Source: Escherichia coli (lineage in GTDB: Bacteria > Pseudomonadota > Gammaproteobacteria > Enterobacterales > Enterobacteriaceae). From it: a stretch of 64,000 nt of DNA. Within the stretch, counting starts at the first letter, position 1, and every line of letters begins with the position of its first letter. The DNA lies in NCBI RefSeq assembly GCF_050920415.1, contig NZ_CP169309.1, one strand, 5' to 3'. Positions 1,821 to 12,139 of this stretch are shown here, piece after piece. The notes under the pieces are model-generated. The model did no database searches, was not told where the DNA came from, and saw nothing but the letters and a program-made list of their open reading frames with translations. The position numbers and the translations under genes are program-made.

Positions 1821-3104
1821 TTACCGTTTGTAATCGATGGCTTCTGGCTGCTCCAGATATACGGTGGTTTGTGCCGGTTGTGTGCTGGCAATCACCTTGC
1901 CGCCACGTACCGAATAACGTACCGGAACCTGACGGCGCAGCGCATCAAATCCATTTTCAGCCGGCAGGATAATCAGGTTGGCGCTGTTTCCGGCGGCAAT
2001 GCCGTAATCCTGCAAATTCAACGTCCTGGCGCTGTGGTGGGTGATTAAATTCAGGCCATCGTTAATCTGCCCGTAGCCCATCAGCTGGCAAACATGCAGC
2101 CCCATATGCAGCACTTGCAGCATATTCGCCGTTCCCAGCGGATACCACGGATCGAAGACATCATCGTGACCAAAGCAGACGTTAATGCCGGACTCCAGCA
2201 TCTCTTTAACGCGCGTAATACCGCGACGTTTTGGATACGTATCGAAACGCCCTTGTAGATGAATATTGACCAGCGGGTTGGCGACAAAGTTAATACCGGA
2301 CATTTTCAGCAAACGGAACAGGCGCGAGGTATACGCCCCGTTATAGGAGTGCATTGCCGTGGTGTGGCTGGCGGTGACTCGCGCGCCCATGCCTTCACGG
2401 TGAGCCAGGGCGGCAACGGTTTCGACAAAGCGCGACTGTTCGTCATCGATCTCATCACAGTGAACATCAATGAGACGGTCGTATTTTTGCGCCAGGGCGA
2501 AGGTTTTATGCAGCGACTCCACGCCATATTCACGGGTAAATTCAAAATGCGGAATCGCCCCCACTACGTCAGCCCCTAAGCGTAACGCCTCTTCCAGCAA
2601 CGCTTCACCGTTGGGATACGACAAAATCCCTTCCTGCGGGAAGGCGACGATTTGCAGATCAATCCACGGCGCGACTTCCTGCTTCACTTCCAGCATTGCT
2701 TTCAGCGCAGTCAGGGTTGCATCCGAAACATCGACATGGGTACGCACATGCTGAATGCCGTTGGCAATCTGCCATTTCAGCGTTTGCCAGGCGCGTTGTT
2801 TCACATCGTCATGGGTTAATAACGCTTTGCGCTCGGCCCAGCGTTCAATGCCTTCAAACAGCGTGCCAGACTGATTCCAGTTCGGTTGCCCGGCGGTTTG
2901 CGTGGTATCCAGGTGAATATGCGGCTCCACAAACGGCGGTAAAACTAAACCTTGCTCGGCATCCAGGCTGTTTTCTGTTACGGGCATCACGCCGGATTGC
3001 GCATCAATGGCGCTGATTTTTCCGTCCTGCAGATGAATCTGCCATAGCCCCTCTTTGCCGGGTAACCGGGCGTTAATAATTGTCTGTAAAGCGTTATTCG
3101 ACAC
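1821..3104 (-). CDS. codA: Cytosine deaminase CodA, 427 aa (GTG start)
   Basis: Track ORF 1821..3119; translation matches CodA (amidohydrolase metal-binding HIHLD motif); start set at the GTG giving [16 protein letters not shown] as remembered for E. coli CodA. Confidence 0.85.
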
Positions 3105-4680: not shown

Positions 4681-6567
4681 TTACTCTTCCATCGCCTGGC
4701 GGATCTGATCCAACGACGCAGGATCATCAATGGTCGTCAGATCTCCAGGATCGCGTCCTTCGCAAATCGCCTGGATCGTGCGGCGCAGCATTTTTCCGGA
4801 TCGCGTTTTTGGCAATTGCGAGACAAACCAGACGTGCGCCGGGCGACCAAAGTTGCCAATCTGGCTGTCCACCAGCGCCATAATCGCCTTCTCTTGCGAG
4901 TGCGCCACCTCGCGATCTTCCAGGCTATCGCTCTCTTTCGGAATGACAAACGCCACCGCCACCTGCCCTTTCAGCGCATCTTTCACCCCAACCACCGCCA
5001 CTTCAGCAACGCCCGGATGACTGGAGATACTCTCTTCAATCTCGCGTGTGCCAAGCCGATGCCCGGCAACATTAATTACATCGTCAGTACGCCCGAGAAT
5101 AAAGTGATAACCGTCAGCATCGCGGATGCCCCAGTCAAAGGTGGCGTACACCGGACGGGAAAACAGCGACCAGTACGTCTTCACAAAGCGGTCGTCATCG
5201 CCCCAGATGGTTTGAATACACCCCGGCGGCAGCGGCCCTTCCACCACTACCATCCCTTTCTCGTTGACACCGCACGGTTCGCCGGTGACTTCATTGAGCA
5301 ACTGCACGTTGTATCCATACATCGGCACGCCGGGGCTTCCCAGACGTGTCGGCCTGTCGTCCAGACCACGAGCAATCGCCATAATCGGCCAGCCGGATTC
5401 GGTCTGCCAGTAATTGTCGATGACCGGCACATCCAGCGTATTGCTCACCCAACTGGCAGTCGGCTCATCCAGCGGCTCCCCCGCCAGATAGAGCACTTCC
5501 AGCGACGAGAGATCGTGTTTGCGAATTTCAGCGGTAGGGAATTTTTTCAGCACGCGGATGGCGGTCGGCGCTGAGAACATCCGGCTAACCTGATATTTCT
5601 CGACGATTTTCCACCACACACCGCAGTCAGGATAAGTCGGCAATCCTTCGTAAACAATGGTCGCCATCCCCGCCAGCAGCGGCGCGTAGACGATATACGA
5701 ATGCCCCACTACCCAGCCGATATCTGACGCACAGAAGAACACACCGCCCGCTTTGCCACCAAAAATGGTGTCCATTGAGGTCGCCAGCGCCACCGCATAA
5801 CCGCCGACGTCACGCTGTACACCTTTTGGTTTGCCGGTCGTGCCGGAGGTGTAGAGAATGCAGGAGGTTTCGTTGGATTCCAGCCACGCCACCGGCACCC
5901 GCGCGCCGATGTGCTGATGGCGCAATGACGCGAAATCGACATCCCGTCCGGTAACGCGCGCCATTTTCGCCAGCCCGCGATCCACCAGCAAAACGTGGCG
6001 CGGCTGATGCTGCGCCTGACTTATCGCATCGTCGAGCAATTTTTTATAAGGAATGATTTTGCCACCGCGCGCTCCGGCATCTGCCGAGACAATCAGCACC
6101 GGTTTAGCGTCATCAATCCGCGCAGCCACGCTGTGCGAGGCAAATCCACCAAACACTACCGAGTGAATAGCGCCAATGCGCGCGCAGGCCAGCAGGGTAA
6201 TATGCGCTTCGGCAATCATCGGCATATACACCAGCACCCGATCGCCACGCCGTACGCCCAGTGAGCGCAGCATTGACGCCACCGCGTTCACTTCGTCATG
6301 CAACTGGCGAAAGGTAAAAGTGCGCTCTTCTTCTGTTTCCGAAGAGACGGCAATTAATGCCAGCGCCTCTGGCTGTTTCTCCAGCCAGCGGTCGATGGCG
6401 TTGTGGCACAAATTGGTTCGGCCTTCACAAAACCAACGGGCAAACGGCGGATTGCTGTGATCGAGCGTTTGCGTAAAGGGCGTCTGCCAGTCAATACGCC
6501 GGGCCTGCTCGGCCCAGAATTGCTCCGGTTCGTTAATCGAACGCTGATAAAATTCGCTAAAAGACAT
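4681..6567 (-). CDS. prpE: Propionyl-CoA synthetase PrpE, 628 aa
   Basis: Acyl/propionyl-CoA synthetase (AMP-binding motif YTSGTTGKPKG); last gene of the prpBCDE operon; length matches. Confidence 0.9.
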   Translation of the reverse strand: MSFSEFYQRSINEPEQFWAEQARRIDWQTPFTQTLDHSNPPFARWFCEGRTNLCHNAIDRWLEKQPEALALIAVSSETEEERTFTFRQLHDEVNAVASMLRSLGVRRGDRVLVYMPMIAEAHITLLACARIGAIHSVVFGGFASHSVAARIDDAKPVLIVSADAGARGGKIIPYKKLLDDAISQAQHQPRHVLLVDRGLAKMARVTGRDVDFASLRHQHIGARVPVAWLESNETSCILYTSGTTGKPKGVQRDVGGYAVALATSMDTIFGGKAGGVFFCASDIGWVVGHSYIVYAPLLAGMATIVYEGLPTYPDCGVWWKIVEKYQVSRMFSAPTAIRVLKKFPTAEIRKHDLSSLEVLYLAGEPLDEPTASWVSNTLDVPVIDNYWQTESGWPIMAIARGLDDRPTRLGSPGVPMYGYNVQLLNEVTGEPCGVNEKGMVVVEGPLPPGCIQTIWGDDDRFVKTYWSLFSRPVYATFDWGIRDADGYHFILGRTDDVINVAGHRLGTREIEESISSHPGVAEVAVVGVKDALKGQVAVAFVIPKESDSLEDREVAHSQEKAIMALVDSQIGNFGRPAHVWFVSQLPKTRSGKMLRRTIQAICEGRDPGDLTTIDDPASLDQIRQAMEE

Positions 6568-6606
6568 AATGCTCTCCTGTTGAACTTACGCCTTACCGCC
6601 GTTTAC

Positions 6607-8058
6607 TTAAATGACGTACAGATCGAGATACTCATTGACCGGCATCTGTTCCAGGCGAGCTCTGTCGAGAGAAACGTCCAGAATGCGCTGCTGCTGTCGA
6701 GTCGGGAACTGGCGCGCGAGGTTGATTTTGAATTTATCGACCAGTTTTGGAATACCGTCCTGACGGCGGCGAGCATGACCAATTGGGTACTCCACCACCA
6801 CTTCTTCAAAGCGCGTGCCGTCGGTGAACTCAAGGGTAATGGCATTGGCGATGGCGCGTTTTTCCGGGTCGTGGTAGTCAGCGGTAAATGCCGGATCTTC
6901 AAAGCAATTGATCTTCTCGCGCAGGGTGTCGATGCGTTTATCTTGCGCAAGGTTGTCTTCGTAATCTGCCGCCGTTAAGCGCCCGAATAGCAGCGGGATC
7001 GCCACCATGTACTGAATGCAGTGGTCGCGGTCTGCCGGGTTATTGAGCGGCCCTTTTTTGTCGATGATGCGAATACAGGCTTCGTGGGTGCGAATGGTCA
7101 CTTTTTCGATATCTGCCGCCGTTTTGCCTGCTGCCTGCATCTGTTCATAGAGCGTCATCGCCGCTTCAACTGCCGTCTGGGAGTGGAACTCCGCCGGGAA
7201 GGAGATTTTGAACAGCACATTTTCCATGACGTAGGAACCGTACGGACGCTGGAAGCGGAACGATTCACCTTTAAAGGAGACGTCGTAGAAGCCCCATACC
7301 GGCGCAGTCAGAGCTGACGGGTAACCCATTTCGCCCGTTTTCGCCATCAGCGCCAGACGTACCGCGCGGGACGTGGCATCGCCCGCCGCCCAGGATTTAC
7401 GCGTGCCGGTGTTCGGTGCATGACGATAGGTGCGCAGCGACTGTCCGTCTACCCATGCCAGCGAAACGGCGTTGAGGATTTCATCACGGGTCAGGCCAAG
7501 CATTTCGGCGACCACGGCGGTGGAAGCCACTTTCACTAACAGAACGTGGTCAAGGCCGACGCGATTAAAGGAGTTTTCCAGCGCGATGCAGCCCTGAATT
7601 TCATGGGCTTTAATCATTGCGGTCAGCACCTGTTTCATGGTCAACGGCGCTTTGCCGCTGGCGACCGCGTTGCGTGAAAGCCAGTCTGCCGTTGCCAGAA
7701 TACCGCCGAGGTTGTCGGAAGGATGGCCCCACTCCACCGCCAGCCAGGTATCGTTGAAATCGAGCCAGCGGATCATCGCGCCAATGTTAAATGCCGCCTG
7801 GACGGGGTCGAGCTGGAACTGAGTTCCGGGGACGCGTACGCCGTTAGGTACAACGGTGCCGGGGACAATTGGCCCCAACAGTTTTTTACAGGCCGGGTAT
7901 TCGAGAGCTTCCAGACCGCAGCCGAGGGTGTCGAGCAGGCAGTAATGGGCGGTGTCATAGGCCACTCTGGAGCTGATTTCGTAGTTCATGACGTAATCGA
8001 CAATATCAATAATTTCGCGGTCGAATTCCGGGCGGATGTTGTTGATTTGAGCTGACAT
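6607..8058 (-). CDS. prpD: 2-Methylcitrate dehydratase PrpD, 483 aa
   Basis: MmgE/PrpD-family protein in conserved prp operon position. Confidence 0.9.
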
Positions 8059-8091
8059 TGGGTACGTTTCCTTCTTGTTATTCGTAGAGGT

Positions 8092-9261
8092 TTACTGGCG
8101 CTTATCCAGCGCGACAAACTGGCGGTCTTCAGGGCCAACATAATTGGCGGAAGGACGGATAATTTTGTTGTCCTGACGTTGTTCGATAATGTGCGCCGCC
8201 CAGCCGGTGACGCGGGCGATAACAAACAGTGGCGTGAACATCTCGGTGGGAACGCCCATCATGTTGTAGGAAACAGCGGAGAACCAGTCGAGATTGGGGA
8301 ACATTTTTTTGCTCTCCCACATTACCGTTTCCAGGCGATCGGCGATGTTGTACATCTTCAGCGAGCCGCCTTCCTGCGAGAGCTGCTTCGCCACTCGTTT
8401 AATCACCTGATGACGCGGGTCGGCGATGGTATAAACCGGATGCCCAAAACCAATCACCACTTCTTTGTTTTCAACCCGCTTGCGGATATCAGCTTCGGCT
8501 TCGTCCGGCGTTTCATAGCGTTGCTGGATCTCCAGCGACACTTCATTCGCCCCGCCGTGTTTCGGCCCGCGCAGTGCGCCAATCGCGCCGATAATGGCTG
8601 AATACATGTCAGAGCCGGTGCCCGCAATCACCCGGCTGGTAAAGGTGGAGGCGTTAAACTCGTGTTCGGCGTACAGCACCAGCGAAATATGCATCGCCTT
8701 TTCCCAGCTTTGCGACGGCTTTTCGCCGTGCAGCAAATGCAGGAAGTGACCGCCGATGGAGTCGTCATCGGTTTCCGGCTGGATGCGTTCGCCGTTGTGG
8801 CTGTAGTGATACCAGTAGAGAAGAATCGAGCTAAGCGACGCTAATAATTTGTCGGCAATATCCCGCGCGCCGGAAACGGTATGCCCCTCTTTTTCTGGCA
8901 GCGTGCAGCCGAGCGCGGAAACCCCGGTGCGCATAACATCCATCGGGTGCGACGCCGCTGGTAAGGCTTCCAGCACGGTACGCACGTTAGCCGGTAAACC
9001 GCGCAGGGCTTTCAGTTTTGTTTTGTAAGCGGCGAGTTCGTCACGGGTCGGCAGTTTGCCATGGATCAGCAGATGCGCCACTTCTTCAAATTCGCAATGT
9101 TCCGCCAGATCAAGAATATCGTAGCCGCGGTAATGCAGGTCATTGCCGCTTTTACCCACCGTACACAGCGCCGTATTGCCCGCCGGAACGCCAGAAAGTG
9201 CCACAGATTTTTTCGGTTTAATGACATGGGTACTGTTTTGCAGGATCGTTGTGTCGCTCAT
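8092..9261 (-). CDS. prpC: 2-Methylcitrate synthase PrpC, 389 aa
   Basis: Citrate-synthase-family protein in prp operon. Confidence 0.9.
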
Positions 9262-9302
9262 GTTGTCCTCGTCATTGTTATCATTTGTAGGGTCGAGAAT
9301 GT

Positions 9303-9400
9303 TGTCGGATGCGACGCTATGCGTCTTATCCGACCTACAGTTCAGTTCATCCCGTAGGCCTGATAAGCCGCGTCAGCGGCGCATCAGGCATCGGTTGTCG
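9303..9400. repeat. REP/BIME element in the prpB–prpC spacer
   Basis: Inverted REP units (…GTAGGCCTGATAAG…GCATCAGGCA…) seen directly. Confidence 0.75.
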
Positions 9401-9423
9401 AATACAACCAACGGGCGTTTGTT

Positions 9424-10314
9424 TTATTTCGTCTGGCTACGGGCAAACAGGTCGTCGAGCTTTTCTTCGTACTGGTAGTAGTTAATGCTTTCATACAGCT
9501 CGTTGCGGGTCTGCATGGTGTCGATGACGCTTTTCTGCGTGCCTTCCTGGCGCAGGACATTGTAGACATGTTCAGCGGCGCGGTTCATTGCGCGGAAAGC
9601 AGAAAGGGGATACAGCGCCATTGCGACATGGGCGCTGCGTAATTCGTCGGTGGTAAACAGCGGCGTGGCACCAAATTCAGTAATGTTGGCAAGGATCGGC
9701 ACCTGCACCGCATCGGCAAACTGGCGGTACATGGCGAGTTCGGTAATTGCTTCCGGGAACAACATCTCGGCACCCGCTTCAACATAGGCCTGCGCACGCT
9801 CGAGCGCCGCATCCAGCCCTTCAACCGCCAGCGCATCGGTGCGCGCCATGATCACAAAATCAGGATCGGTTTTCGCATCCACCGCCGCGCGGATCCGATC
9901 CACCATTTCTTCTTTTGAAACGATCGCTTTGTTCGGACGATGTCCGCAGCGTTTTGCTCCAACCTGATCTTCAATATGTAAGCCCGCCGCACCGGCTTTA
10001 ATCATCGATTTCACGGTGCGGGCAACGTTAAAGGCCGAAGAGCCAAAACCGATATCCGCATCCACCAGCAGCGGCAGCGAGCAGACGTCGGTGATACGAC
10101 GAATATCAGTCAGCACATCATCAAGAGTAGAAATACCGAGATCCGGCAACCCCAGCGAACCTGCCGCCACACCACCGCCGGAGAGATAAATCGCCTGATA
10201 TCCGGCACGCTGCGCCAGCAGCGCATGGTTGGCGTTAATGGTGCCGACAATCTGCAATGGATTTTCTTTAGACAGTGCAGCGCGAAACGCTTTACCTGGA
10301 GAGTGTAGAGACAT
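9424..10314 (-). CDS. prpB: 2-Methylisocitrate lyase PrpB, 296 aa
   Basis: PEP-mutase/isocitrate-lyase-family protein; first gene of prpBCDE. Confidence 0.9.
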
Positions 10315-10360
10315 AGCCCATCCTTTGTTATCAACTTGTTATTTACGTTGATAAACTCAG

Positions 10361-10376
10361 AGCAAGGGGTGTGCCA
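10361..10376 (-). promoter_or_regulatory. Sigma-54 (-24/-12) promoter of prpBCDE
   Basis: On the minus strand reads TGGCAC-N5-TTGCT, a near-perfect sigma-54 consensus, about 50 bp upstream of the prpB start and adjacent to the sigma-54 activator gene prpR. Confidence 0.7.
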
Positions 10377-10552
10377 CAATTACCTGGATGAAATTAAATG
10401 TTTTATTTCAATTTGTTATAGATAAAGCCATGAAGTAATCCGCAAATATGCGTTTCAGTTAACGTTTCAGGCAATGTTTCACTGCGTTTCATTGCAACAA
10501 TTATGAAACAAGACTAAACCCATTATTCGGTTTCTTAACTTTGCGGTGCGCT

Positions 10553-12139
10553 ATGGCACATCCACCACGGCTGAATGACGACAAACCGGTTATCTGGACG
10601 GTATCTGTAACGCGGCTGTTCGAGCTATTTCGCGATATCAGCCTCGAGTTTGATCACCTGGCAAACATTACTCCTATCCAGCTTGGCTTTGAAAAAGCAG
10701 TGACCTACATCCGCAAAAAACTGGCCAGCGAACGCTGCGACGCCATCATTGCCGCTGGCTCTAACGGTGCGTACCTGAAAAGCCGCCTGTCGGTACCGGT
10801 GATTCTGATAAAACCGAGTGGCTATGATGTGTTACAGGCACTGGCAAAAGCTGGAAAACTCACCTCTTCTATCGGCGTTGTCACCTATCAGGAAACCATT
10901 CCGGCACTGGTAGCGTTTCAAAAAACCTTTAATTTGCGCCTCGACCAACGTAGCTACATTACCGAAGAAGACGCACGTGGGCAGATTAACGAGCTAAAAG
11001 CCAACGGCACCGAAGCGGTGGTCGGCGCGGGGCTGATTACCGATCTGGCAGAAGAAGCCGGAATGACCGGAATTTTTATCTATTCTGCCGCCACCGTGCG
11101 CCAGGCATTTAGCGATGCGCTGGATATGACGCGCATGTCGTTACGCCATAATACTCACGATGCCACCCGCAACGCCCTGCGTACTCGTTACGTGCTGGGC
11201 GATATGCTCGGTCAATCACCACAGATGGAACAGGTACGGCAGACTATTTTGCTGTATGCCCGCTCCAGTGCGGCGGTGTTGATTGAAGGGGAAACGGGGA
11301 CGGGCAAAGAGCTGGCGGCCCAGGCGATTCATCGGGAATATTTTGCCCGCCACGATGCGCGACAGGGCAAAAAGTCACATCCGTTTGTTGCCGTCAACTG
11401 CGGGGCGATTGCTGAATCTCTGCTGGAAGCGGAGCTGTTTGGCTATGAGGAAGGGGCGTTTACCGGCTCGCGACGCGGAGGACGCGCCGGGCTGTTTGAA
11501 ATCGCCCACGGTGGCACGCTGTTTCTTGACGAGATAGGCGAAATGCCGCTGCCGTTGCAGACCCGGCTGCTGCGGGTGCTGGAAGAAAAAGAGGTCACCC
11601 GCGTCGGCGGGCATCAGCCTGTTCCGGTGGATGTGCGGGTTATTAGCGCCACTCACTGCAATCTCGAAGAGGATATGCAGCAAGGGCGTTTTCGCCGTGA
11701 TCTGTTTTATCGACTGAGTATTTTGCGTCTGCAATTGCCGCCGCTACGCGAGCGGGTGGCGGATATTCTGCCGCTGGCGGAAAGCTTTTTGAAAGTGTCA
11801 CTGGCGGCACTTACTGCGCCGTTTTCTTCCGCGTTACGTCAGGGATTACAGGCAAGTGAAACTGTGCTGTTGCGCTACAACTGGCCGGGAAATATTCGTG
11901 AACTGCGCAATATGATGGAACGACTGGCGCTATTTTTAAGTGTGGAACCGACGCCGGATTTAACGCCGCAATTTTTGCAGTTGCTACTGCCGGAACTGGC
12001 GCGCGAGTCGGCGGAAACTCCCGGTCCATGCTTACTGACGCCACAACAGGCACTGGAGAAATTTAATGGCGATAAAACAGCCGCGGCGAATTATTTAGGT
12101 ATCAGCCGAACGACATTCTGGCGGCGGCTGAAAAACTGA
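10553..12139 (+). CDS. prpR: Sigma-54-dependent transcriptional activator PrpR, 528 aa
   Basis: Track ORF 10541..12139; AAA+ sigma-54 interaction domain ([14 protein letters not shown] motifs) and C-terminal HTH; start set at [13 protein letters not shown] to match the remembered PrpR. Confidence 0.9.

Follow-up and report, generated by a model that had tools for sequence, protein, structure and literature searches.

The element GTGGCACACCCCTTGCT, located on the minus strand between prpB and the divergent gene prpR, is almost certainly the sigma-54 (-24/-12) promoter of prpBCDE, arranged as in Escherichia coli K-12. As such, the sigma-54 promoter of prpBCDE is already known; it is real, conserved and ordinary. 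Below, the whole analysed stretch of 64,000 nucleotides is referred to as the window.

Gene content of the prp locus

The window contains five full-length prp genes, all scoring above the NCBIfam equivalog cut-offs. Four of them, prpB, prpC, prpD and prpE, are co-oriented and contiguous on the minus strand (4681-10314).

4681-6567, minus strand: prpE, above the NCBIfam equivalog cut-off, in agreement with the RefSeq annotation
6607-8058, minus strand: prpD, above the NCBIfam equivalog cut-off, in agreement with the RefSeq annotation
8092-9261, minus strand: prpC, above the NCBIfam equivalog cut-off, in agreement with the RefSeq annotation
9424..10314, minus strand: prpB, 2-methylisocitrate lyase, first gene of the operon (NCBIfam PRK11320, 559.9 bits versus a cut-off of 353)
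10553..12139, plus strand: prpR, sigma-54 enhancer-binding activator of 528 aa (PRK15424 (NF011953), 1006.7 bits versus a cut-off of 703)

A record with 100% identity also has prpB annotated as such. Of 5426 complete E. coli genomes, 5218 have a match to the region, which is annotated as prpB/prpR. PrpR scores 884 bits against TIGR02329 (cut-off 499) and is comprised of the Pfam domains PrpR_N, Sigma54_activat, AAA_lid_14 and HTH_8. In the translation, the Walker A motif reads GETGTGKE, and EGAFTGS includes the loop that contacts sigma-54, in the variant form GAFTGS documented for E. coli PrpR (PMC3162934). The ATG codons of prpB (10314, minus strand) and prpR (10553, plus strand) diverge from a gap at 10315-10552, which is exactly 238 bp, the length given for this common region in the preliminary description. 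No match to an Rfam family was found across the window.

The nucleotide identity to K-12 is 94.1% for prpR, 94.1% for the gap and 94.4% for prpB, that is, the prp locus (9424-12139) is diverged by ∼6%. Most E. coli genomes match the prp locus at only 90-95%, with the flanking codA and yahK segments matching at 95-99%, and the prp gap is at least 99% identical in only three records. The picture is that of a rare, diverged allele, which recombination may have brought in. In addition, a cluster of four genes of a sugar/AI-2-like ABC transporter (two permeases, an ATPase and a substrate-binding protein) was found between yahK and yahJ at ∼16150-20590 of the window (L023 17939-22372). K-12 has yahL and yahM in this neighbourhood, and the transporter cluster may therefore be a strain-variable insertion.

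Core promoter element

The pattern search yielded a single match to TGGCACNNNNNTTGCW with zero mismatches in the 64-kb window, namely TGGCACACCCCTTGCT on the minus strand at 10376..10361. The preliminary description had read a TGGCAC-N5-TTGCT element upstream of prpB on this strand, and its sequence, strand and coordinates were right, the match being exact.

10361..10377, minus strand: sigma-54 core promoter GTGGCACACCCCTTGCT (17-mer including the 5' G; exact match, top PSSM score)

The -24 GG occupies 10375-10374 and the -12 GC occupies 10363-10362, in the canonical 12-bp G-to-G register. The element lies inside the prpB-prpR gap on the same strand as prpB, and thus has the correct orientation for this gene.

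To score the site, we used a leave-one-out PSSM derived from 41 other intergenic sigma-54 ChIP-seq motifs (Bonocora et al.). A matrix scan had been proposed together with the preliminary description; in it, the prpB site ranks first in the window with 15.1 bits, and 15th of 41 among true sites (range 9.0-21.3). Still, dinucleotide shuffling of the 64 kb produced an equal or better site in 72 of 100 cases (mean 1.1 per shuffle), and with one mismatch allowed the pattern has four matches in the window versus 3.4 expected. Hence, the motif score alone is not beyond chance across the whole window. The expected number of such sites on the correct strand of the 238-bp gap is ∼0.002, and the site adjoins the gene of a sigma-54 activator, with the predicted start 36 nt from the start codon. 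It is the position, orientation, context and conservation that make the site significant, rather than its motif score.

Two other sigma-54-like matches were considered and rejected. The second-best score in the window, 14.8 bits, belongs to CTGGCACGCTGTTTGAA inside codA (2853-2869, minus strand, sense orientation). This match lacks the -12 GC, and no sigma-54 ChIP peak was reported in codA or codB of K-12 (Bonocora et al., 2015; PMC4591121). The beginning of prpR reads ATGGCACATCC and provides a -24-like TGGCAC (10554-10559, within 10554-10563), which lacks a -12 partner; this is probably a chance match.

Published evidence for the same element is available from two species. In K-12, the sigma-54 ChIP-seq site OS01 upstream of prpB is the identical 17-mer GTGGCACACCCCTTGCT, with a FAT score of 17, the peak centre at 347850 and the motif centre at 347851, 1 bp apart (Bonocora et al., 2015; PMC4591121). 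In vitro, gSELEX with the reconstituted RNAP-sigma-54 holoenzyme selects the prpR/prpB spacer (Shimada et al., 2021; PMC8743547). ChIP-chip in Salmonella shows enrichment of the homologous site TGGCATAGCCTTTGCT, and the wild type expresses prpBCDE 45-fold more strongly than a delta-rpoN strain (PMC3844500). The occupancy of the 17-mer by sigma-54 was demonstrated in K-12, from which the prp locus of the strain considered here is ∼6% diverged.

Conservation in related genomes

We retrieved prp loci from Escherichia, Citrobacter and Kluyvera, one genome per species, using only a pattern of the first 32 nt of the prpB coding sequence, so that the retrieval was independent of the promoter. In all 21 loci obtained, the best PSSM match upstream of prpB has the form TGGCAY-N5-TTGCY. 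In an alignment of 13 sequences from the three genera, all five positions of TGGCA and all four positions of TTGC are invariant, as compared to three of six positions in the 6-nt spacer and three of ten in the stretch from -11 to -1. Such a pattern is what one would expect of a -24/-12 promoter.

Of the 14 positions at which the gap differs from that of K-12, none lies in the proposed elements, which together cover 89 bp (hypergeometric P = 0.001). Taken with the gene identities, the domains of PrpR and the identity of the 17-mer to the K-12 ChIP-seq site, the conservation supports the earlier reading that the region is under PrpR/sigma-54 control.

Predicted transcription start

To place the start, we followed Bonocora (PMC4591121) in counting 19 bp downstream from the motif centre, which is at 10369 here.

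10348..10352, minus strand: predicted prpB transcription start, ∼10350, 36 nt before the ATG

The predicted distance of 36 nt to the ATG equals the K-12 value, since the predicted start of OS01 is 36 bp upstream of prpB (PMC4591121). Among the 21 related loci, every predicted start is 35-38 nt away from the ATG, and published intergenic sigma-54 sites are commonly located 20-90 nt upstream of the gene (PMC4591121).

The preliminary description had referred to a mapped K-12 prpB transcription start. This needs a correction: as of 2015 the EcoCyc status of the K-12 prpB promoter was 'P', predicted and not confirmed (PMC4591121 Table 1), and an experimentally mapped E. coli (K-12) start was not found in the literature searched, including Zhao 2010. 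The K-12 prpB promoter thus appears to rest on occupancy and prediction, and not on a mapped start.

Putative PrpR enhancer and IHF-like core

Upstream of the core element, the gap contains a cluster of hexamers and an A+T-rich spacer with an IHF-like sequence.

10452..10509: putative PrpR enhancer (UAS), five TGAAAC/GTTTCA half-sites, -102 to -159
10406..10418, plus strand: IHF-like core TTTCAATTTGTTA, -56 to -68, one mismatch to WATCAANNNNTTR

Four half-sites are TGAAAC on the minus strand (10452-57, 10464-69, 10476-81 and 10486-91), and the fifth is on the plus strand (10504-09). The distal pair forms GTTTCAT-N10-ATGAAAC, which is kept in Escherichia, Citrobacter and Kluyvera. Five half-sites per 238 bp is the maximum for the window; most stretches have none, and the others have at most two or three.

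The published consensus of the PrpR enhancer is CGTTTCATGAAACG (PMC4987338 Table 1), and the hexamer TGAAAC/GTTTCA is half of it. The complete palindrome CGTTTCATGAAACG is absent from the window, the best matches having three mismatches. It is present exactly in Citrobacter, at the aligned position where Escherichia have three direct TGAAAC repeats spaced by 10, 12 and 12 bp. As Escherichia do not have the perfect CGTTTCATGAAACG that defines the Salmonella enhancer, the E. coli half-sites are assigned to PrpR by analogy and should be regarded as putative. The distance between the enhancer and the promoter is 10-11 bp longer in Citrobacter and Kluyvera than in Escherichia. An indel of 10-11 bp corresponds to one helical turn and therefore leaves the helical face unchanged, which fits activation by DNA looping.

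The IHF-like core sits between the enhancer and the promoter. Its TAA-N4-TTG skeleton is invariant across the three genera within an otherwise poorly conserved A+T-rich spacer, and judging from the sequence, 10406-10418 is a likely candidate for the IHF site. Another IHF core, in this case exact, is found downstream of the start (+10 to +22). The requirement for ihf is known from Salmonella, according to work cited in PMC5566544 and PMC2965739.

A CRP site has been reported to overlap the PrpR operator. Scanning for TGTGA-N6-TCACA with up to three mismatches, we obtained one match only, over the prpR start codon (10545-10560), and thus did not locate the reported site. The match itself was rejected as a CRP activator site, as its three-mismatch core GGTGCGCTATGGCACA straddles the start codon and is probably due to chance.

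Proposed mechanism

The arrangement suggests the following course of events. The RNA polymerase-sigma-54 holoenzyme would form a closed complex on GTGGCACACCCCTTGCT (10377..10361, minus strand), and the divergently encoded PrpR would occupy the TGAAAC cluster at -102 to -159. PrpR would bind 2-methylcitrate, which is formed from propionate via PrpE and PrpC. A bend introduced by IHF at about -60 could then bring the enhancer and the promoter together, so that the AAA+ domain of PrpR would contact sigma-54 via the GAFTGS loop and ATP hydrolysis would open the promoter. Transcription of prpBCDE would begin at ∼10350, 36 nt before the prpB ATG. In this scheme, we infer the exact start, the bases contacted by IHF and the assignment of the E. 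coli half-sites to PrpR. The dependence on rpoN, prpR, ihf, 2-methylcitrate and CRP comes from the work of others in K-12 or Salmonella; in reviews, PrpR, sigma-54 and IHF are named as necessary for prpBCDE expression and 2-methylcitrate as the co-activator, with CRP acting on both promoters.

Comparison with known promoters

The closest known system is the K-12 prpB promoter (prpBp), which has the same 17-mer, the 238-bp gap, the 36-nt distance, the five TGAAAC half-sites and the IHF-like core. The two gaps are 94.1% identical, with 14 substitutions that all lie outside the proposed elements.

Salmonella LT2 shares the divergent prpR-prpBCDE arrangement, a sigma-54 -24/-12 element, bound there in ChIP-chip, and presumably the control by PrpR, IHF and 2-methylcitrate. 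The GTTTCA/TGAAAC recognition motif is also shared (Palacios and Escalante-Semerena 2000/2004, as cited in PMC4987338 and PMC3844500). By contrast, its core is TGGCATAGCCTTTGCT, and its enhancer, according to the same sources, is the perfect CGTTTCATGAAACG, which is also the form of Citrobacter and is absent from Escherichia. Unlike this Salmonella/Citrobacter form, that of Escherichia has the three direct TGAAAC repeats and an enhancer-promoter distance shorter by 10-11 bp.

The atoDAEB promoter of E. coli (OS21) has the core CTGGCACTCCCCTTGCT, which differs from the prpB core at two of 17 positions, the unusual CCCC spacer being common to both. Its predicted leader is 35 nt, and atoDAEB is also a short-chain fatty-acid catabolic operon adjoining the gene of its own enhancer-binding activator. 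However, that activator is AtoC, a two-component response regulator; the enhancer is different and the loci are not homologous.

Alternative explanations for the core element

One could suppose that the -24/-12 match has arisen by chance and that prpB uses an ordinary sigma-70 promoter in the gap. Sites of at least 15.1 bits are indeed common in shuffled windows (72 of 100), and the literature searched offered no mapped prpB start. However, sigma-54 occupies the identical 17-mer in K-12 in vivo and the holoenzyme selects it in vitro, and all 21 related loci have TGGCA/TTGC fixed at a like distance from the ATG. Moreover, a simple scan of both strands at 10250-10620 revealed no sigma-70-like hexamer pair, including one for the promoter of prpR itself. 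In Salmonella, prpBCDE is rpoN-dependent, and the loss of propionate induction upon the GG/GC mutation or delta-rpoN has already been reported. A chance origin of the element is therefore extremely unlikely.

It is also very improbable that sigma-54 binds the site and yet the promoter has little or no activity here, owing to the diverged prp allele. The divergence is real, as the locus differs from K-12 by ∼6% and identity of at least 99% over the region occurs in only three of 5220 records. However, no proposed element is touched by any of the 14 gap differences, PrpR is intact with 98.1% protein identity to K-12, and all five prp genes are full-length and above the equivalog cut-offs.

ArcA-like boxes

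The gap contains two further elements, which were identified with an ArcA PWM built from 115 ArcA boxes (Park 2013 Table S3).

10325..10342, plus strand: direct-repeat element TTGTTATCAACTTGTTAT in the prpB leader, +9 to +26, ArcA-box-like (16.1 bits)
10494..10511, minus strand: second ArcA-box-like site TTGTTTCATAATTGTTGC (16.1 bits), 42-59 bp upstream of the prpR ATG

These two 16.1-bit sites are the best two ArcA-like matches in the 64 kb, and none of 3000 dinucleotide shuffles of the gap contained two or more such sites. The leader element is a direct repeat of TGTTA, TAACAA-N5-TAACAA, and its 11-bp period is the direct-repeat architecture of ArcA-P (Park 2013). It also includes the exact IHF core TATCAACTTGTTA (10329-10341). 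Across the three genera, 16 of the 18 leader-box positions do not vary, a degree of conservation above that of the promoter's own spacer; it is these 18 bp, and not the promoter, that form the most conserved stretch of the gap. An RNA hairpin (arms 10328-35/10347-54) was considered as the main cause of this conservation and rejected: the z-scores of 0.34 and -0.92 are no better than those of shuffles. Since, in addition, the predicted start lies inside the 5' arm, the hairpin is unconvincing.

These observations raise the possibility that prpBCDE, besides having a genuine sigma-54 promoter, is shut off directly from an operator in the leader (10325-10342), either by ArcA-P during anaerobiosis or by IHF bound downstream, with 10494-10511 controlling prpR. 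Such a scheme would add to the main explanation rather than replace it. The pair of top-scoring boxes, the conservation and 11-bp period of the leader box, and the poor performance of the hairpin as an alternative speak in its favour. So do the 2.9-fold increase of prpR in a delta-arcA strain and the ArcA box of at least 15 bits predicted upstream of prpR, both from Park (2013). On the other hand, the same study has no ArcA ChIP peak at the prp locus and does not state which sequence upstream of prpR was scored. The second site overlaps the distal PrpR inverted repeat, and the PrpR half-sites could account for its conservation. The leader box, in turn, could be conserved for other reasons, since it matches the IHF consensus as well and overlaps with the ribosome-binding region. 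On balance, we consider a direct shut-off from the leader possible and somewhat doubtful. The proposal that 10325-10342 and 10494-10511 are functional ArcA-P operators, which derives from their sequence, is equally tentative and would more probably turn out to be wrong than right. To our knowledge, the leader site has not been discussed before, and the site upstream of prpR has been predicted computationally.

Implications

For annotation, the value of the analysis is that the window has an intact, canonical prp regulon, comprised of the promoter, the enhancer, the activator and four enzymes. The promoter itself brings nothing new on sigma-54 biology. Escherichia seem to have rebuilt the enhancer relative to Citrobacter and Salmonella while keeping the helical phasing. 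This rebuilding may relate to the weaker performance of the E. coli PprpB in expression vectors, where it is about threefold weaker, according to work cited in PMC5566544. Finally, the conserved pair of ArcA-like boxes suggests a putative layer of redox control. If it is real, a redox regulator acting downstream of the start would directly switch off a sigma-54 promoter and also repress prpR, and the oxygen-requiring methylcitrate cycle would be turned off under anaerobiosis.
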